Of a DNA stretch of 64,000 nt, positions 21,990 through 31,618 are shown one piece after another; the first letter of the stretch is position 1; every line of letters starts with the position of its first letter. The stretch lies in the NCBI RefSeq assembly GCF_044647545.1, contig NZ_CP172818.1; one strand, 5' to 3'. The stretch comes from Escherichia coli. Its GTDB lineage: Bacteria; Pseudomonadota; Gammaproteobacteria; Enterobacterales; Enterobacteriaceae. The notes under the pieces are model-generated. The model saw only the letters and a program-made list of their open reading frames with translations. It searched no databases and was not told the origin of the DNA. The position numbers and the translations under genes were made by a program.

Positions 21990-22223
21990 GGCAGCCAGTG
22001 GTCCTGTTTTCAATACGGCTACAAATGTAGCGTTGAGGTGGTTTTTCAGATCCGCATAGCATAGCCCAAACGTCCGCGTCAAAACAGCCTTTCGCGCACT
22101 CGACGTTGAAATGATGCCCGGATTATTCATACATTAATTTACAGAGTTTGTGGGCGTATTAGCAAAGCAAGGAACAAAGAACGTCTATTATTATAGTCAG
22201 TTAACGACCCGGGAGATGAAACG

Positions 22224-22706
22224 ATGAACAAGGTTGCTCAATATTACCGTGAACTGGTCGCGTCACTGAGCGAACGCCTGCGTAATGGCGAACGTGATAT
22301 CGACGCACTGGTGGAACAGGCGCGCGAGCGCGTAATAAAAACAGGGGAGTTAACGCGAACCGAGGTCGATGAGCTGACGCGAGCTGTCAGACGTGACCTG
22401 GAAGAGTTCGCCATGAGCTATGAAGAGAGCCTGAAAGAAGAATCTGACAGCGTCTTTATGCGGGTGATTAAAGAAAGCTTGTGGCAGGAGCTGGCAGACA
22501 TCACCGATAAAACGCAGCTTGAATGGCGCGAAGTTTTCCAGGACCTCAATCATCATGGGGTTTATCACAGCGGAGAAGTGGTAGGGCTGGGAAATCTGGT
22601 CTGCGAGAAATGTCACTTCCATCTCCCGATCTACACACCGGAAGTGCTGACGCTATGCCCGAAATGTGGTCATGACCAGTTCCAGAGACGCCCGTTCGAG
22701 CCTTAA
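22224..22706 (+). CDS. ybeL: YbeL, 160 aa, C-terminal zinc-ribbon-like protein of unknown function
   Basis: Two CxxC pairs (CEKCHF ... CPKCGH) at the C-terminus; recognised as YbeL. Confidence 0.85.
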   Translation: MNKVAQYYRELVASLSERLRNGERDIDALVEQARERVIKTGELTRTEVDELTRAVRRDLEEFAMSYEESLKEESDSVFMRVIKESLWQELADITDKTQLEWREVFQDLNHHGVYHSGEVVGLGNLVCEKCHFHLPIYTPEVLTLCPKCGHDQFQRRPFEP

Positions 22707-22775
22707 TGGTCTGATTTCGCACAGCAATAAAGATATATGGGCCGAATAAAATTCCCCGGCCCTTGTTTTTATCTC

Positions 22776-23759
22776 TTACAGTAAATCTTCAATCTCACGG
22801 ATTTTTTGACTGACATCCCTGGTACCGGATGACTGAGCTTTACGATACAGATCGAGAGCCTGTCGGAGATCGACAGGTCTTCCTTCTCCGTAATGATACA
22901 TAATGGCAAGGTTATACCAGGCAGTGGCATTATCGCATTCAGCGGCTTTCGTAAACCATTCAAAGGCGGCCTGATAATCTTTCTCAACGCCTTGTCCATG
23001 TTTATACATATAACCGATGTTGACGTAAGCGCCGACGCTTTCCTGAGCGGCAGCCTTCAGATACCAGTACATCGCTTGCTTATAGTCCTGGTCCACCCCT
23101 TCGCCAGCGTTATAATCCCATGCAATTTGAAACTGGGCATGCCGATTACCCTGCTGTGCGCTTTTCAAATACCAGAATGCGGCGAGTGTCTTATTTTGAG
23201 CAACGCCTTCTCCGTCTTTATAGAGATCGGCCAGGTTGTCTTGCGCGTAACTATGGCCTTGTAATGCAGCTTGTTTGTACCAGAAAAATGCCAGCGCATA
23301 GTCTTGTGCGACTCCGTTGCCATTTCTGTACATCCACCCAAGATTATTTTGCGCATAAGACATTCCGCTCTCCGCGGCTATCTGATACCAGGCAACCGCT
23401 TCTTTATAGTTGGGGTCTTCTCCACGATCCTGTATCCAGCCAAGGGCGTTGGAAGCGAAAGTATGGCCTTGTAGGGCAGCTTTTTTCAGCCAAAAGATGG
23501 CTTGCCCATTATCTTTATGACGGCTTTTATCCTCGGTATACTTTTGCCCTAAGGAATATTGTGCTTCACAATGACCTTGCTCAGCGGCAAGCTTCAGCCA
23601 GTAAAAGGCCTTTTCGTCGTCCGGAGAGTCAATTGCGCTATCGCGATTATAATAAAACCCAATAATATATTGAGCCTCGCAATCGCCTTTTTCAGCACGT
23701 TCGATAATCTCATCTATTGATAAATTATCGCAGCAACTTGACGTAAAAATCATTATCAT
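22776..23759 (-). CDS. ybeQ: Sel1-repeat (TPR-like) protein YbeQ, about 325 aa
   Basis: About eight tandem ~36-aa repeats with the Sel1 signature (AxxWYxKAAxQGxxxAQxxLGxxY); no obvious signal peptide; exact start (23759 vs 23753) uncertain. Confidence 0.85.
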   Translation of the reverse strand: MIMIFTSSCCDNLSIDEIIERAEKGDCEAQYIIGFYYNRDSAIDSPDDEKAFYWLKLAAEQGHCEAQYSLGQKYTEDKSRHKDNGQAIFWLKKAALQGHTFASNALGWIQDRGEDPNYKEAVAWYQIAAESGMSYAQNNLGWMYRNGNGVAQDYALAFFWYKQAALQGHSYAQDNLADLYKDGEGVAQNKTLAAFWYLKSAQQGNRHAQFQIAWDYNAGEGVDQDYKQAMYWYLKAAAQESVGAYVNIGYMYKHGQGVEKDYQAAFEWFTKAAECDNATAWYNLAIMYHYGEGRPVDLRQALDLYRKAQSSGTRDVSQKIREIEDLL

Positions 23760-23916
23760 TTCCTTATGGTTGCATATAAAGCATATTATATTTTTATGTG
23801 TTCCATTTTTGCGTAAGCCTTATTTTATGCGTATTATGTTGCGTCAGAAAAGTATAAATAAATGAGCCTCGCAACGTGGTTAATATTCATTGAATGAATA
23901 TTTAAGGATAAATTAT

Positions 23917-24624
23917 ATGGACATGGAGTCGCAAAAAATATTGTTTGCACTTTCCACTCCGATGGAAATACGCAATGAATGCTGTTTACCTTCGCATTCA
24001 TCCCCCAAAATGTATTTAGGTACACGCTTTTTTGACCTTTCTTCCTCCTGGGGAATTGATGACCGTGATGACCTGCTGCGCACAATTCACCGAATGATCG
24101 ATAACGGTCATGCCGCTCGGTTGGCAGGGCTTTATCACCGCTGGTTTCGTTATTCTCCGTGTGAATGGCGTGACTATCTTGCTGAACTAAATGAGCAAGG
24201 TCAGGCTTATGCGCAATTTGTCGCCAGCACCGCCGAATGCTGTGGCGAAGGGGGAATCAAAGCCTGGGATTATGTCCGGATGGGTTTTTTAAGCCGAATG
24301 GGCGTACTTAATAACTGGTTGAGTGAAGAAGAAAGCCTGTGGATCCAGTCGCGCATTCATCTACGGGCTCTACGTTATTATAGTAACTGGCAGCAATACT
24401 TTGCCGGTTATACCTTTGGTCGGCAATATTGGCAGTCTCCCGAGGATGATGATCTGCCTTTATTACGTGAATTCTTAGCGCGTAAAGAATACGACGATTC
24501 CGGCAATGATATGTTTTATCAATTATTTGCCAGTGACGATGCATATTACGCGACCTTACCCTGGCAACCACTGGCTGACTACCCCACATGCCCGGAAACG
24601 CTTAAGGATATGAGCGACCTATGA
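23917..24624 (+). CDS. ybeR: YbeR, 235 aa, DUF1266-like protein (family name from memory); paralogue of YbeU
   Basis: Start chosen at internal ATG so length matches the YbeU paralogue; shares [20 protein letters not shown] and ATLPWQPL...LKD(M/V)SDL with YbeU. Confidence 0.8.
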
Positions 24625-26048
24625 AAAATTGCTGGAAGATTCTCGAAATAGAGGAAACGACTGACGTCGATATTATCCGCCGCGCTTATCTGGCGCTGTT
24701 ACCGTCCTTTCATCCAGAAACCGATCCGCAGGGTTTTAAACAACTTCGTCAGGCGTATGAGGACGCGCTACGGATTGCGCAGTCGCCTGCTAAATCTGTT
24801 TGGCAACCAGAAGAACATGAAGTTGCAGAACATGAAATTCTGCTCGCCTTTCGTGCGTTACTCGCCTCTGATAGCGAACGTTTTCTGCCCTCTGCCTGGC
24901 AGCGATTCATTCAGCAATTAAATTATTGCTCGATGGAAGATATTGATGAATTACGCTGGTCGCTGTGCACAATAGCCATGAACACTGCCCATTTATCCTT
25001 CGAGTGCGTGGTGTTATTAGCAGAAAGATTGCGGTGGTTGCAGGAGGAAAACGTCGGGGAAATAGACGAAGAAGAACTGGAATCCTTTTTATATGCCATT
25101 GCGAAGGGGAATGTTTTTAACTTCCAGACCATTCTGCATCTGCCCGTTGCCGTACAAAATGACACCATTGATTTTTACCAAATGTTCGCTCGGATTTGGT
25201 CATCGCATCCAGAATGGCTGACATTGTATTTAGCGCAACATCGCGCAGTGATTATCCCCGATGATGCAAATTTGCACAGAAATTTACTCCGCTGGTATAG
25301 CACAAGCCGTCTGGATATCCCCGAACTTCTGGATTACGCCCGGTCGTGGCGGGAAGCTGAACCTGATAATGAAGATGCGCGTTATTATGAATACGCGCAA
25401 CGCGTCTATTGTGGAGAAGGCGAAAGCCTGCTGGCAGAACTTTGTGACTACTGGCGCGAGTATCCCTCCACCCAGGCGGATGCTTTAATGTTGCAATGGT
25501 GCCGTCAGCATCGGGTCGATTATTACCCGTTAGTGGTGATGATGATTGAAGCGCGTGATCTGGTTAACGATCAGGGAAAACCGCTACTTTATGTCCCTGG
25601 TGACAGCGCTCGTACGCGTTTTCATTTATACGAAATACTCAGTGATGAAAAACTCTCTGCGCTGGGGCGTTCTCTGGTCGAGATGGTTTTGCACAAAGGA
25701 CGTAAGCCGCGGATCTCACTCACGCGTGATACAGAACATACCTTATGGTCATTATATCTAGTTGCCAAACAATTAGTGCAGGCCAGCCAACCGACAGAAG
25801 AATCATTAATGCCGATTGTGAGCCGCCTTGATGCAGAAGATCGTTGTCCTCTGGAAGCATTAATTATTCGACGGTTATTAATTCAGGCGGCGAATTTTAC
25901 CGAGAAGCAAACCGTCGAACCGGAGCCGCAACCGCAGTCGATGCCCGTTGACGATGGTGGGCCGGGCTGTCTGGGCGTCATCAAAATTATTTTCTACATT
26001 TTTATCTTTGCCGGTTTAATAGGGAAAATACTCCATCTGTTCGGGTGA
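24621..26048 (+). CDS. djlB: J-domain co-chaperone DjlB (YbeS), 475 aa, with C-terminal hydrophobic anchor
   Basis: N-terminal J-like domain ([33 protein letters not shown]), C-terminal hydrophobic segment ([21 protein letters not shown]); start overlaps ybeR stop as ATGA. Confidence 0.85.
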
Positions 26049-26057
26049 CAGTCGACG

Positions 26058-26612
26058 TTAATGTGCGGGAAGCCCGGCAAGTAATCTTTCCGCGTTTTTG
26101 TAATGTTGTTTGGCGGCCAGTTTTAACCATTTTTGAGATTCATAATGGTTAACATTAATACCTGAGCCATTTCTGTAGATCAAACCCAAAGTATATTGAG
26201 CATGAGCATACCCTTGTTCAGCTGCTTCCTTATACCAGAGAATTGCTTTACGGGTATCGGGTTTGACCCCCAGACCTTTGAGGTAGATCCACCCCAGTTT
26301 ACTTTGCGCGCGTGGATTTTCCTGTTCCGCTGATTGCTCATACCAGTATCTCGCCTGTGTATAATCCAGTGGTTTACCGTCGCTACCATGAAGATAAAAT
26401 TCTCCAAGGCGATATTGCGACGTTGAGTGACCATGAATCGCGGAAAGCTCCGTGGCTGCCGTGGTGAATGGAAGACTGCCCGGTGAGCTTAAATAATCAA
26501 AGGCATAATTCGCCATGGCTTTATCACGCAACGTCGTTTTCTTGGGTTGGCTAATACAGGTTATTGCTGCAACTATAAATATTGCGAATGTATACATTAA
26601 TTTTTTATTCAT
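26058..26612 (-). CDS. ybeT: Sel1-repeat protein YbeT, 184 aa, with N-terminal signal-peptide-like segment
   Basis: Hydrophobic N-terminus ([21 protein letters not shown]) followed by about three Sel1 repeats. Confidence 0.85.
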
Positions 26613-26713
26613 GTGTGAATGCTTCGATTTTCTTTTTATTTTGAAAGCGTCAAGTTTATACTCATCAATAATAAAAAAGTAGTCAGTTAATGCACTTAAG
26701 GGATTATTAACAA

Positions 26714-27421
26714 ATGAATAAGGAAGAACAATATCTTCTTTTTGCGCTTTCTACGCCCATGGAAATACTTAATCAGGGTTGCAAGCCCGCGCATGACTCG
26801 CCAAAAATGTATACCGGGATAAAAGAATTCGATCTCTCATCATCCTGGGGAATAAATAATCGTGATGATTTAATTCAGACTATTTATCAGATGACCGATG
26901 ATGGTCATGCCAATGATTTAGCTGGCTTATATCTGACATGGCATCGCTCTTCCCCTGAAGAGTGGAAAGCATTAAATGCTGGTGGCTCGGAGAGAGGGTT
27001 GATTTATACCCAATTCGTTGCCCAAACCGCTATGTGTTGTGGGGAAGGGGGAATCAAAGCCTGGGATTATGTGCGGATGGGTTTTTTATCACGGGTTGGT
27101 GTGCTCAACAAGTGGCTGACGGAAGACGAGAGTTTATGGCTGCAATCGCGCGTCTATATACGAGCACACCATTACTATCACAGCTGGATGCACTATTTTT
27201 CCGCCTATTCGTTAGGGCGTCTCTACTGGCAATCTTCTCAGTGCGAAGACAACGCTTCGCTACGCGAGGCGCTAACCCTGTACAAATACGATAGCGCCGG
27301 GAGTCGGATGTTCGAAGAGCTGGCAGCGGGAAGCGACCGTTTCTATGCCACGCTTCCCTGGCAGCCATTAACTGTCCAGCCTGAATGCCCGGTAACGCTT
27401 AAGGATGTGAGCGACCTATGA
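26714..27421 (+). CDS. ybeU: YbeU, 235 aa, DUF1266-like protein; paralogue of YbeR
   Basis: Collinear similarity to YbeR over the full length. Confidence 0.85.
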
Positions 27422-28869
27422 AAACATGTTGGCAAATCCTCGAAATTGAAAGCACGACGCAAATAGACATTATCCGCCAGGCTTATCTTGTTCGCTTACC
27501 GTTGTGTCATCCCGAAACCGATCCGCAGGGGTTTAAAGCATTACGCCAGGCCTATGAAGAGGCGCTGCGACTGGCGGTAAATCCTGTCGAGGAGGCAGAT
27601 GATGAAGAAAAAGATGCCGCCGCTGAACATGAAATACTACGTGCATTCAGGGCATTACTGGATTCTGAAAGTGATCGTTTTCAGCCCTCCGCCTGGCAGA
27701 AATTTATTCAGCAATTAAATACCTGGAACATGGAGGATGTCGATCAATTACGCTGGCCGCTGTGTGCAGTCGCTATAGAAGCGCGATATCTTTCATTAAA
27801 TTGTGCTTCTTTGCTGGCAGAGCGTTTGAACTGGCATTCGTTTAATGACAGCGAAGGAATGGATGAGGAAGAAAGGGAGGCTTTTCTTGAGGCCATTCAG
27901 GCTGGTGATTGTTTCGATTTCCTTAGCCTTCTGGAATATCCCGTCGCGTTGCAGAACCAGACTGTTGAGTATTACTTCGCGCTGGAACGCTGCTGCCGTT
28001 ACCATCCTGACTATGTCACTGCGTTTATGGCAATGGAAGGTCCGTGGTTCATTCCTGATGATGTCAAGTTACATCGCAAACTGTTGCGCTGGTACAGCTC
28101 GGTGAAAACAGGTATGGCGGAACTTATTCCTGTTGCCCAACAGTGGCAAGCAGAAAATCCAGAAAGCGAAGATGCCCGTTATTACCAGTGTGCGCAACGG
28201 TTGTACTGTGGCGAGGGGGAAAGCCTGCTTGCCGATCTCTGCGCATACCGGGAGAGTTACCCATCTACACAAGCTGATAATTTGTTGTTGCAGTGGAGCA
28301 AGCGTCATTGCCCGGATTATTTCGCGTTATTAGTGATGGTTATCGAAGCGCGAAGCATGATAGATGCGCAAGGTCAACCGTTGAAATATGTTCCTGGTGA
28401 GAGCGCCCGGACGCGGCTGTTATGGGCGGAAATTTTACATAGCGGAAAATTATCGCCGTTAGGTCAATCGTTTATTGAGTCGTTATTCTTCAAGCGCAAA
28501 GCATGGGCATGGTGGAAATCGAGAGTCGGTAGCGAGACAGAACAAGATTCACCGTTACTGGATTTGTATCGGGTAGCGGAACAGGTTGTGCTGGAAGCGT
28601 TCCCGAAACAAGAGATGCTGGCCCGTCTTAATACAAGGCTGGAAGGTGGAGATGCTCATCCATTAGAGGCCATTATCACGCGGATGCTGTTGACGAAAGT
28701 GAAACTCGAGCCGGAGGATGAAGATGTCGATGAGCCAACACCTGAAAACCACGAAGAAAAAAATGATGAGGATGAAAAACCACAGAGCATTACCAGCATT
28801 ATCAAAATCAGCTTAACGGTGCTGGTGATAGGTTATGCTCTCGGAAAAATCGCGATGTTGTTTAGCTGA
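27418..28869 (+). CDS. djlC: J-domain co-chaperone DjlC (YbeV), 483 aa, with acidic tail and C-terminal hydrophobic anchor
   Basis: J-like domain ([13 protein letters not shown]), acidic stretch ([24 protein letters not shown]), terminal hydrophobic helix; start overlaps ybeU stop as ATGA. Confidence 0.85.
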
Positions 28870-28928
28870 GGATGTGTTTTTTGCGCCGATGCCGGATGCA
28901 GCGTTTATGCCGCATCCGGCAGCCGTGT
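28870..28928. repeat. REP (repetitive extragenic palindrome) element between convergent djlC and hscC
   Basis: gccgatgccggatgcagcgtttatgccgcatccggcagcc palindrome typical of E. coli REP units. Confidence 0.6.
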
Positions 28929-30599
28929 TTAAGGGATCTCAATAGCCAAATAATCGCTCGCCCGTCGCCGAACTTCATCGACGCGGGCCATATCGTTTGA
29001 CTGCAACGCCGCATCAAAATCGGTGATCACCCGGCCGATCTCTTCTCGCTCGTCACCCAGCGCCCGCGCCCACAACTCTTCCAGTTTGGCCTTAAAGGTG
29101 CGGTTGATGAGCATATCGCGCGGATAAATTTTCAATGCGGATAACCGCGTCCGACTCTCTTCAATCTGCTGTGCGCTCAATGTTACAGGACTGTGATTAA
29201 TGACTCTGGACTTAACGCTGCCGTCTTCCAGAAGCACGTCAACTTCAAGCAACCCGTTGATATCATAACTAAAGCGAATATCAATCGACTGATAAGCCCC
29301 GGTTTTCTTCAACGGCACATCGAAGGATTCCACCAGAATGTTATTTTTAACTTTGTGGTTTTCTCCCTGATAGACGTTAACCGTAATTGAATCCTGTTCC
29401 CGGTGCATGGTCGAGTAAGTTTCTACACGCGACACCGGTACAGTGGTGTTTCGTTCAATAATCGGCGAGAAAATGCCGGAAACGCCCTGGCGGTTAACTT
29501 CAACACCCAACGAGTAAGGGCAAATATCAGTGAGGATCACCTCTTCAATATCTTCACTGCGTAAGCGGCAGGCGGCCTGGATTGCTGCGCCCAGCGCGAC
29601 AATGGTGCTCGGATCGTAACTTTGATACGGTAATTTGCCAAACAGACGCACGGCGATTCGCTGCACCAGCGGCATTTGTGATGCGCCGCCAACCAGCACC
29701 AGACTGTCGATTTGACTTGGCTTCAGACGTGCATCGCGCAACGCCTGTTCAATCGGTACTCGCAAGCGATTGAGCAGCGGCAACCACAAATCTTCCAGTT
29801 CGTTCTCGTAAAATTCGCACTCACGCGTTTCTTCCTGACACTGCCAGCTAATTTGCAGCGGTAATTGATTGCTGCATTTTGCCGCTTCCACGCTGGTGTA
29901 CAGGGCTGCCAGCTCACTTTCGTTGAGCATGTTTTTAGCCACTGCGGCGCGTTTTAAAACTTCATCCACCAGCATATGAGTAAAATCTTCGCCGCCAAGA
30001 AAGTTGTCGCCAGCGGAGGCGTGAACTTCAATCACCGGCGTGGCGTATTCGAGCACCGTGACGTCAAACGTGCCGCCACCGAGATCAAAAACCAGCGAGC
30101 GGGTATTTTGTTGCGTATGCAGGCCATATGCCATCGCAGCTGCTGTGGGTTCATTAATTAAGCGTACCGCATTTAACCCGGCTAACTCCGCTGCTAAACG
30201 GGTATGCTTGCGTTGTTCATCGCTGAAATAAGCCGGAACGGAGATCACCACATCTTTAATCGGACGTTGCAGAAATTCTTCGGCATCTTCTTTTAATGAG
30301 CGTAATACCAAAGAGGACAGTTCTGGCGCGTTAAATGTGTCGCTGCCTAACCGCCAGTTGGTATTACTGCCCATTGCACGTTTAAATAACGCTGCCGTTT
30401 TATCCGGATGCGAAGTACGCCGTGATACAGCCGGTTTTCCGACTAAAATATGATTATTTTCATCCATGCTAATTATGGATGGTGTTAAATATTCACCGAA
30501 CTTATTTGGAATTAATTGCGCGGCACCGTCTTTCCAGACGGCAATTAAACTATTGGTAGTACCGAGATCGATACCAATGGCGAGTTCTGCATTATCCAT
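28929..30599 (-). CDS. hscC: Hsp70-family chaperone HscC (Hsc62), 556 aa
   Basis: Hsp70 ATPase signatures (IGIDLGTTNS, DLGGGTFD, VLVGGASQMP) and substrate-binding domain. Confidence 0.9.
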   Translation of the reverse strand: MDNAELAIGIDLGTTNSLIAVWKDGAAQLIPNKFGEYLTPSIISMDENNHILVGKPAVSRRTSHPDKTAALFKRAMGSNTNWRLGSDTFNAPELSSLVLRSLKEDAEEFLQRPIKDVVISVPAYFSDEQRKHTRLAAELAGLNAVRLINEPTAAAMAYGLHTQQNTRSLVFDLGGGTFDVTVLEYATPVIEVHASAGDNFLGGEDFTHMLVDEVLKRAAVAKNMLNESELAALYTSVEAAKCSNQLPLQISWQCQEETRECEFYENELEDLWLPLLNRLRVPIEQALRDARLKPSQIDSLVLVGGASQMPLVQRIAVRLFGKLPYQSYDPSTIVALGAAIQAACRLRSEDIEEVILTDICPYSLGVEVNRQGVSGIFSPIIERNTTVPVSRVETYSTMHREQDSITVNVYQGENHKVKNNILVESFDVPLKKTGAYQSIDIRFSYDINGLLEVDVLLEDGSVKSRVINHSPVTLSAQQIEESRTRLSALKIYPRDMLINRTFKAKLEELWARALGDEREEIGRVITDFDAALQSNDMARVDEVRRRASDYLAIEIP

Positions 30600-30682
30600 T
30601 GCATTTATATCTTGAAAGAAAAAGAGATAAACAGATTAAGACCACCCAGGTAACGCGTGGTGATCTTAATCAATGACGTGTG

Positions 30683-31618
30683 TTAAGCGTAAAATTTCAG
30701 ACGATCGGCCAGTAAATCAACAAAGCCCTGACGATCAACATCGACCATTACAGTGGCATTCGGTTTATTGCCAGTCAGATAATAATAATCAACAACCGTC
30801 ATACCCTGGGTATATTTCCCTTGTGTTTCCACGCCAACCCAGCGCTCAACAGTGGTAAACAACTCCGGTTTTAACAGCCAGGCGATGGTGCATGGGTCAT
30901 GCAGCGGTGCGCCGACAAAGCCCCATTTTTCGTCTTTATGATATTCGAGGAAGAAATCCAGCAGTTCGGCAACAATGGTTGAAACAGGGTTGCCAATCGC
31001 GCGGAAACGCTCAGTGTCTTCAACGTGGATTTGTGCTTTGTGAGTAACATCCAGACCGGCCATCACCACCGGAATTCCTGACTGGAAGACAATTTCTGCC
31101 GCTTCCGGGTCAACGTAAATATTAAATTCAGCCGCAGGCGTCCAGTTACCAAGCCCCATTGCGCCGCCCATAATCACGATACGGGCAATTTTGCTATGCA
31201 GTTCCGGGTGGCTATTGAGCAGCAAGGCAACGTTCGTTTGCGGTCCGGTAGAAACAATGGTGACAGGTTCCGCACTTTCACGCAGCGTTTTCGCCATCAG
31301 CTCCACCGCCGTACAGTTTTGCGGTGCGAACGTCGGTTCCGGTAATGCAGGGCCGTCGAGACCGCTTTCGCCGTGCACATTGTCCGCGATAATCAAATCA
31401 CGCATTAATGGTTTTACCGCACCGCTTGCTACCGGAATATCGGTGCGATTAAGCAAGGTCAGCATACGCAGAACATTGCGTAAGGTTTTTTCTGGTGTCT
31501 GGTTTCCGGCGGAAGACGTAATTGCTTTGACATCAAGCTCTGGTGAGGCGAGGGCGAGAACGATTGCGATAGCGTCATCATGACCAGGGTCGCAATCTAA
31601 CAGAATTGGCAGTGCCAT
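30683..31618 (-). CDS. rihA: Pyrimidine-specific ribonucleoside hydrolase RihA, 311 aa
   Basis: Nucleoside hydrolase N-terminal DxDxxxDD motif (DCDPGHDDA); start set at [15 protein letters not shown]. Confidence 0.9.

Follow-up and report, generated by a model that had tools for sequence, protein, structure and literature searches.

The window analysed here, 64,000 nucleotides of an Escherichia coli contig (NZ_CP172818.1, assembly GCF_044647545.1), carries the gene order leuS–ybeL–ybeQ–ybeR–djlB–ybeT–ybeU–djlC–hscC–rihA. Annotated E. coli chromosomes, in which RefSeq uses the names djlB and djlC, match 9 kb of it at 100% identity, and the genes show zero differences from those encoding the known E. 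coli co-chaperones DjlB (YbeS) and DjlC (YbeV, Hsc56) and their partner HscC (Hsc62). The features considered below are listed in order of position; hydrophobic segments were scored by the Kyte-Doolittle scale in a 19-residue window (KD19), with 1.6 as the cut-off, and model-based values for DjlC refer to an AlphaFold2 model with a mean pLDDT of 85.8.

22776..23753, minus strand: ybeQ, Sel1 repeats, divergent from ybeR
23917..24624, plus strand: ybeR, DUF1266; stop codon overlaps the djlB start (ATGA)
24621..26048, plus strand: djlB (ybeS) coding sequence, 475 aa, with J-domain, all-helical DjlB_C_2nd domain and tail anchor (open reading frame and RefSeq annotation)
24711..24719, plus strand: codons CAT CCA GAA for DjlB H31-P32-E33, the HPD-equivalent loop
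25968..26042, plus strand: DjlB hydrophobic segment C450-F474 (tail anchor), KD19 maximum 2.37 in the window starting at residue 450
26058..26612, minus strand: ybeT, Sel1 repeats, divergent from ybeU
26714..27421, plus strand: ybeU, DUF1266; stop codon overlaps the djlC start (ATGA)
27418..28869, plus strand: djlC (ybeV) coding sequence, 483 aa (RefSeq annotation)
27508..27516, plus strand: codons CAT CCC GAA for DjlC H31-P32-E33, the HPD-equivalent loop
28708..28776, plus strand: DjlC acidic linker E431-E453, predicted to be disordered (pLDDT <50 over 432-455)
28789..28863, plus strand: DjlC hydrophobic segment I458-F482 (tail anchor), KD19 1.99 in the window starting at residue 464; helix 458-482 in the model
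28929..30599, minus strand: hscC, specialised Hsp70 partner, convergent with djlC (annotation; Pfam HSP70, E=1e-117)

DjlC is 49% identical to DjlB and YbeU 61% identical to YbeR, and a conserved DUF1266 gene appears to be translationally coupled to the J-protein gene. The hscC gene lies 60 bp downstream of djlC. A role of this cluster in anti-phage defence was considered and dismissed: PADLOC returned no match for DjlB, DjlC, YbeR, YbeU or HscC, and the Sel1 proteins gave merely marginal, repeat-type matches to PtuA.

The sequence-only reading had claimed that in both J-domain loops HPE replaces the invariant HPD, and its coordinates and sequences proved exact. In a MAFFT alignment with canonical J-domains the HPE of DjlB and DjlC falls exactly under H33-P34-D35 of DnaJ, of which it is the functional equivalent; phmmer searches of the PDB, whose matches were mostly J-domains, albeit weak (E between 0.003 and 1), align it to the HPD of these structures. 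The AlphaFold2 model of DjlC agrees, with a helix at 16-29, a loop at 30-35 that contains HPE and a second helix at 36-54 (pLDDT 90-95), which puts the tripeptide in the loop of the hairpin formed by helices II and III. Pfam detects the DnaJ domain in residues 4-47 of DjlB (E=2e-4, 21.8 bits) and also in DjlC (E=3.5e-3, 17.8 bits), both below the gathering score of 27.8 bits, and a precomputed PF00226 match exists for some of their homologues. DjlC contains a second tripeptide, an HPD at residues 196-198, which could be discarded as the J loop: it sits at a helix junction within the PF27158 helical domain, its equivalent in DjlB is HPE, it is not conserved over 42 relatives, and the only J stretch seen by Pfam is 4-47.

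The two proteins share with the canonical J-domain (PF00226) of DnaJ and CbpA the helix II–loop–helix III arrangement with an H-P-acidic tripeptide in the loop, and they retain the equivalents of DnaJ R22, Y25, F47, K48, A53, Y54 and E55. They differ from it by Glu in place of Asp35, by the loss of the basic K26 and R27 of helix II (DjlB has L/A at these positions and DjlC L/V), by a shorter loop after the tripeptide, by the lack of a clear match to helix IV (the Pfam profile is covered over positions 2-51 of 63) and by the partner, which is HscC and not DnaK.

The departure from the invariant His-Pro-Asp is not a chance feature to judge by its conservation, as HPE occupies the same place, residue 31, in 109/109 close homologues whose N-terminus is complete. 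The tripeptide forms part of a clade signature, HPExDPxGF, and ten residues (W5, Y23, H31, P32, E33, P36, G38, F39, R43 and Y46) show no variation in a set of 42 diverse sequences. Among the signature-bearing representatives listed (101 clusters at 50% identity) 86 carry HPE and 13 NPE, and SPE and RPD also occur. HPE as such occurs in ~1% of J-domains, with some 1,700 cases in prokaryotes and 1,200 in eukaryotes, the latter including sodium/calcium-exchanger fusions, according to Malinverni 2023 (PMC10410713). The eukaryotic proteins have unrelated architectures, and what sets the bacterial DjlB/DjlC clade apart from the other HPE proteins is the combination of HPExDPxGF, the PF27158 domain and the linkage to HscC.

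The second domain, PF27158 (DjlB_C_2nd), is carried by the cluster representative that is 95% identical to DjlC (P0001) and by one of the DjlB type (P0043). According to the model it may be described as all-helical and, weakly, as TPR-like at most: a PDB fold search with the DjlC model returned nothing at E ≤ 0.001, and its top hits, weakly matching solenoids of TPR-like type (APC/C subunits, NlpI and the middle domain of Hip), had E ≥ 0.09 and TM ≤ 0.24. None of the NCBIfam family models matched DjlB, DjlC or YbeR.

At the other end of the proteins, the claim that each finishes with a single hydrophobic helix is borne out by the KD19 maxima and the DjlC model helix given above and by the retention of the hydrophobic tail in 78 of the 82 full-length homologues. 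Outside the tails the best KD19 window in either protein is ≤1.53, and a single residue follows the segment in both, so that DjlB and DjlC have one C-terminal transmembrane segment with neither another hydrophobic segment nor a signal peptide. The strongly acidic stretch noticed before the tail of DjlC is also real, with 14 D/E in the 33 preceding residues vs 5 in DjlB. The suggested tail-anchored membrane localisation is right as well, and it is already in the literature: both proteins have been described as tail-anchored (Mayer 2021, PMC8215388), insertion of DjlC into the plasma membrane has been reported (Peschke 2018, as cited in PMC8215388), with DjlC being a DnaK-dependent client for this step (PMC8215388), and the tail of DjlB has been tried in yeast as a predicted tail anchor (PMC5525287). 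DjlA, likewise a class C J-domain protein, is similarly placed, being attached to the inner membrane while its J-domain lies in the cytoplasm. Its transmembrane segment is N-terminal, its J-domain, with the canonical HPD, is C-terminal, and its partner is DnaK. DjlB and DjlC are its reverse, with the J-domain N-terminal, the anchor C-terminal, HPE in the loop and HscC as the partner. The three proteins are listed together in PMC8215388.

HscC is, to our knowledge, the least understood bacterial Hsp70, with phenotypes limited to Cd2+ and UV and with no clients known to us. The association of the J-protein clade with this type of chaperone is evident from gene order, since in addition to hscC beside djlC, the distant signature-bearing relatives adjoin an HscC-type Hsp70 gene in 7/7 readable gene contexts, a small sample of hand-chosen loci. 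The relatives concerned range from 428 to 1161 aa, the longest being of the NPE type, and have TPR or multi-TM C-terminal parts, and the neighbouring Hsp70s have 563-567 aa. Aligned to DnaK, all these Hsp70s exhibit deletions of 76-101 and 208-211 together with D477S/T and D481N/S, and all keep K70, P143, D148, R167, Q378, L391, D393 and P419. E. coli HscC itself possesses the features listed for the HscC type in PMC8215388, i.e. it has the 76-101 and 208-211 deletions, carries an insertion within SBD-beta L1,2 and has a shorter lid and tail. In DnaK, R167 and Q378 form hydrogen bonds with DnaJ D35, and in the ATP-bound state R167 is paired with D481. R167 and Q378 are unchanged in E. coli HscC (as R146 and Q341) and in six other HscC-type neighbours, i.e. 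no compensatory change was found in HscC at the residues that contact DnaJ D35. The interface changes in E. coli HscC lie instead in the deleted loop 208-211, at D477 (S/T) and at D481 (N), the last being a position at which each of the seven HscC-type proteins examined, E. coli HscC among them, has N or S. As a separate observation, the 'essential' His of the tripeptide has been replaced in some lineages (NPE, also SPE and RPD) while the DnaK contacts of H33 and D35 stay invariant in the Hsp70.

The presence of HPE in DjlB and DjlC is likewise documented, by Malinverni 2023 (PNAS; PMC10410713), in a review (PMC10349383) and by Mayer 2026 (PMC13254874), where HPE is regarded as the only tolerated replacement of HPD. 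The literature we found thus records the variant but does not explain it, so that one half of the refuting condition named by the sequence-only reading, a literature that both documents and explains HPE, applies; it yielded no E→D mutagenesis data on the HPE loop. Functionally, the ATPase of HscC is reported to be specifically stimulated by DjlC (Kluck 2002, as cited in PMC8215388), cooperation of DjlB with HscC 'can be assumed' (PMC8215388), and deletion of djlB and djlC results in the same Cd2+ sensitivity as deletion of hscC (PMC8215388). The J-domain of DnaJ cannot be replaced by that of DjlC (PMC1906734), and the identity of the J-domain to DnaJ is only ~23% (PMC8215388). Because HPE and the tail anchor were both described before, the observation of these two features is correct but ordinary.

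We consider it likely that DjlB and DjlC are what they are known as, namely class C co-chaperones of HscC held at the membrane, in which HPE is an ancestral working loop and specificity is spread over the interface. The single C-terminal helix would hold both proteins in the inner membrane, and because the J-domain and the PF27158 domain would face the cytoplasm, HscC would be brought to the membrane, where its ATPase would be triggered. HPE would be the clade's working version of HPD, a conservative Asp-to-Glu change fixed in the ancestor of the HPExDPxGF lineage, which is genetically coupled to HscC-type Hsp70s. On the J-domain side the co-adapted interface would include the observed lack of the basic pair K26 and R27 of DnaJ helix II, and on the side of HscC the absence of the acidic loop corresponding to DnaK 208-211 and the change of D477 into S/T and of D481 into N. 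In this scheme the loop, its conservation and the gene linkage are read from sequence, and the stimulation of HscC by DjlC, the non-interchangeability with the DnaJ J-domain and the membrane insertion of DjlC are taken from the literature; that DjlB behaves like DjlC we infer.

The alternative that the Asp-to-Glu exchange is itself the principal specificity switch, in which the longer Glu fits HscC but not DnaK and so insulates the pair from DnaJ, CbpA and DjlA, appears unlikely to us. It draws on the invariance of HPE in the close family, on the co-occurrence of the xPE signature with HscC-type neighbours in every readable context, on the failed exchange of J-domains, and on the Asn of HscC at D481, which could alter the geometry around R167. 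Against it, DnaK and every HscC-type protein examined share the same two residues as partners of D35, the J-domain as well as the Hsp70 shows differences at several further positions of the interface, one relative that directly adjoins an HscC-type Hsp70 reads RPD, with Asp as the third residue, and the low identity to DnaJ leaves many candidate determinants. Because HscC keeps R167 and Q378 yet changes other positions of the J interface, HPE is probably not the sole determinant; Glu33 would be one piece of a co-adapted interface, over which, as we infer, partner specificity is most likely distributed.

Far less probable still is the view that the HPE domains are degenerate, J-like domains of 'type IV' that do not stimulate Hsp70, with DjlB and DjlC acting as membrane scaffolds or clients. 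The sub-threshold Pfam matches, the loss of even the His in distant relatives (NPE, SPE) and the dependence of DjlC on DnaK for its insertion all fit with it, as does the treatment of DjlB in a review (PMC10349383) under type IV J-proteins, a class with a mutated triad that is often regarded as inactive. DjlB and DjlC depart from the HPD consensus as do type IV proteins such as DNAJB13 (PMC13254874, PMC10349383). These, however, are presumed unable to stimulate Hsp70, whereas DjlC is reported to stimulate HscC specifically, and reviews add the shared Cd2+ sensitivity of the deletions; moreover, the loop and helices II and III are strictly conserved and the genes are tightly linked to that of an Hsp70.

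A broader proposal, that the xPE loop (HPExDPxGF) is a co-evolved, clade-wide hallmark of all J-proteins devoted to Hsp70s of the HscC type, is put forward tentatively, as a possibility we rate as rather doubtful. Such a hallmark would span tail-anchored, multi-TM and TPR-giant architectures. No paper describing it was found in a search that left aside the Barriot 2020 survey and the supplements of Malinverni 2023.

Taken as originally stated, the finding matters little, since what it says of DjlB and DjlC amounts to two facts of textbook level found again. What is added to the literature is the invariance of HPE in the close homologues, the HPExDPxGF signature, the HscC linkage of distant relatives, the NPE, SPE and RPD variants and the interface changes in HscC. 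On the mechanistic side, the question raised is how much Glu33 contributes to the exclusive pairing of DjlC with HscC. Should the NPE domains still activate their Hsp70, the J-domain trigger of HscC-type chaperones would be a relaxed or altered one. The linkage between xPE loops, NPE variants included, and HscC-type Hsp70s provides a handle on the specificity of J-domains for Hsp70s and on the function of HscC, and the coupled DUF1266 gene provides a second one.

The region was identified from its ORF map, a Pfam scan and annotated E. coli chromosomes that match it at 100% identity, and shows the gene order leuS, ybeL, ybeQ, ybeR, djlB, ybeT, ybeU, djlC, hscC, rihA, gltL. The span 24621-28869 considered in the sequence-only reading extends exactly from the djlB start to the djlC stop, and the two encoded J-domain proteins (475 aa in DjlB vs 483 aa in DjlC) share 49% identity along their whole length. 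The genes discussed here are:

ybeQ, minus strand, Sel1 repeats
ybeR, DUF1266
djlB, 24621-26048, plus strand, J-domain protein
ybeT, minus strand, Sel1
ybeU, DUF1266
djlC, 27418-28869, plus strand, J-domain protein
hscC, 28929-30599, minus strand, Hsp70

The sequence-only reading had proposed that both J-domains carry HPE in place of the canonical HPD, and the analysis confirmed this. The codons CAT CCA GAA in djlB (24711-24719) and CAT CCC GAA in djlC (27508-27516) encode His31-Pro32-Glu33, which in a MAFFT alignment falls directly under H33-P34-D35 of E. coli DnaJ (from MG1655), with the DnaJ anchors R22, A24, Y25, F47, K48, A53, Y54 and E55 conserved. A phmmer search of all PDB sequences returned mostly J-domains, with HPE aligned to their HPD. 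In the AlphaFold2 model of DjlC, built from a 42-sequence alignment (mean pLDDT 85.8), helices 16-29 and 36-54 are joined by a loop comprising residues 30-35, all at pLDDT 90-95, which places the tripeptide at the site expected for the J-domain catalytic loop. The Pfam DnaJ matches are weak (21.8 bits for DjlB and 17.8 bits for DjlC vs the gathering score of 27.8), in agreement with the reported ~23% identity to the J-domain of DnaJ (PMC8215388). DjlC also contains an HPD at residues 196-198 (28003-28011), which we considered as the true J-loop and ruled out: its place is within the helical second domain, the corresponding DjlB residues are HPE, and the tripeptide shows no conservation; it is probably coincidental.

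HPE was found at residue 31 in 109/109 close homologues with the N-terminus retained, among 120 sequences from Escherichia, Salmonella, Citrobacter and Enterobacter obtained in a search of 5.8 billion proteins. Its presence is more than chance, and the Glu is evidently being maintained, since one transversion in GAA suffices to yield Asp. In 42 diverse relatives W5, L8, Y23, H31, P32, E33, P36, G38, F39, L42, R43, A45, Y46 and A49 are invariant. The view of HPE as a functional equivalent of HPD holds as well, on the strength of literature reports taken together: DjlC is reported to stimulate the HscC ATPase specifically (PMC8215388), its J-domain reportedly cannot stand in for that of DnaJ (PMC1906734), and the djlB djlC double deletion confers the same Cd2+ sensitivity as deletion of hscC (PMC8215388).

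The HPE variant and the tail anchor of these proteins have both been published already. A total of 2,921 HPE J-domains (~1% of all) is given by Malinverni et al. (2023), who name DjlB and DjlC as examples and suggest "additional fine-tuning" (PMC10410713); HPE has been described as the one replacement of HPD that is tolerated (PMC13254874), and a 2023 review places DjlB among the J-proteins with a mutated triad (PMC10349383). Neither a test of an E33 mutant nor an explanation of HPE was found in the literature searched, which did not include Kluck 2002, Peschke 2018 and Barriot 2020.

The predicted tail anchoring was likewise supported. The top 19-residue Kyte-Doolittle window is located at the extreme C-terminus (2.37 in DjlB, 1.99 in DjlC), a single residue follows the hydrophobic stretch in both proteins, and no other window exceeds 1.6; the DjlC model exhibits a confident helix 458-482 preceded by a disordered segment 432-455. 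The acidic stretch claimed for DjlC coincides with this segment (14 D/E in 33 residues), whereas DjlB has only 5 D/E there. Such a tail is kept in 78/82 full-length close homologues. Both proteins have been described as tail-anchored, with DjlC inserting into the plasma membrane, and HscC was inferred to act at the membrane (Mayer 2021, PMC8215388, citing Peschke 2018 for the anchoring and insertion); the DjlB tail has been used in yeast as a predicted bacterial tail anchor (PMC5525287). A structural search with the central domain of the DjlC model revealed no significant match, the best being weak TPR-like solenoids (E at least 0.09).

An HMMER search run exhaustively against 1.84 billion representatives identified 2,137 relatives (E <= 0.001). 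Among the best 150 of these, 101 have the signature xP(E/D)x(D/N/E)PxGF, with the tripeptide HPE in 86, NPE in 13, and SPE and RPD in one each. Their architectures are diverse: some are ~890 aa long and have between one and three hydrophobic segments at the C-terminus, others comprise 1,000-1,400 aa, contain TPR repeats and lack membrane segments, and in one there are six membrane segments; PF27158 (DjlB_C_2nd), the helical domain after the J-domain, is common to all. In seven of the eight gene contexts examined an Hsp70 of 563-567 aa immediately adjoins the J-gene, and the eighth contig is too short to judge. All these Hsp70s are of the HscC type, with a 23-residue deletion of DnaK 76-101, the acidic loop 208-211 deleted, S/T at DnaK D477 and N/S at D481. 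Three relatives beside HscC-type Hsp70s (L006 2303-5788, L012 2887-5400 and L010 5639-6925, in the coordinates of these database loci) have NPE, SPE or RPD for HPE, so that the supposedly essential His is replaced and the signature is otherwise retained (xDPEGF...LR.AYE).

In the DnaK–DnaJ complex H33 bonds to the L391 carbonyl, P34 lies on P419, D35 forms hydrogen bonds with R167 and Q378, a bridge links K48 with D477, and R22, K26 and R27 of helix II bind the NBD (PMC8215388; PMC10349383). HscC keeps R167 (as R146), Q378 (as Q341), L391, D393 and P419, as do 6/6 other HscC-type proteins, whether the partner carries HPE, NPE, SPE or RPD; the change from Asp to Glu thus has no matching change in its direct partners. 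The differences lie elsewhere. On the J side, DnaJ K26/R27 correspond to L/A in DjlB and L/V in DjlC. On the HscC side, the 208-211 loop with the J-contact D211 is gone, as noted in PMC8215388, D477 is replaced by S (S444) and D481 by N (N448). The S/T and N/S replacements recur in 7/7 HscC-type Hsp70s examined, with R167 and Q378 invariant; in DnaK, D481 acts as a clamp on R167 in the ATP state and D477 is the salt-bridge partner of DnaJ K48 (PMC8215388). As to the suggestion that HPE could underlie specificity for HscC, these comparisons are most economically explained by a co-adapted J-domain/HscC interface, in which Glu33 would be one element and not a single-residue specificity switch; specificity is probably multi-determinant.

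In the segment 22776-28869 a module of three genes (a Sel1-repeat gene on the minus strand, a DUF1266 gene and a J-protein gene) has been duplicated in tandem, with ybeQ-ybeR-djlB and ybeT-ybeU-djlC as the two copies; YbeR and YbeU are 61% identical, DjlB and DjlC 49%, and the Sel1 repeats 33-37%. At the leuS-ybeL site a Salmonella-type contig (L009, 6001-13377) has three paralogues of the DjlB/C type, with lengths of 458, 477 and at least 490 aa. A DUF1266 gene precedes two of these, so enterobacteria differ in how many copies of the module they carry. The divergent Sel1/DUF1266 intergenic regions (23500-23999 and 26500-26999) are markedly AT-rich (GC 0.37-0.38 vs about 0.48-0.50 in the flanks) and could function as shared promoters or in silencing. 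At least 80% of the 9 kb region 22000-31000 is matched in one piece by only 3,655 of the 5,426 complete E. coli genomes, and many truncated or frameshifted DjlB/DjlC variants are present in the databases; this region seems to decay or rearrange readily.

The DUF1266 stop and the J-gene start overlap as ATGA at both E. coli junctions (24621-24624 and 27418-27421), and the same 4-base overlap (2906-2909) accompanies a DUF1266 gene kept in a distant metagenomic locus (L003), which suggests that the two genes are translationally coupled and that the partnership of DUF1266 and J-protein is conserved. In the literature searched, DUF1266 appears in one unrelated paper only. The remaining interest lies in the clade-wide linkage of xPE J-domains with HscC, in the NPE variants, and in the conserved DUF1266 gene, apparently translationally coupled to the J-gene.
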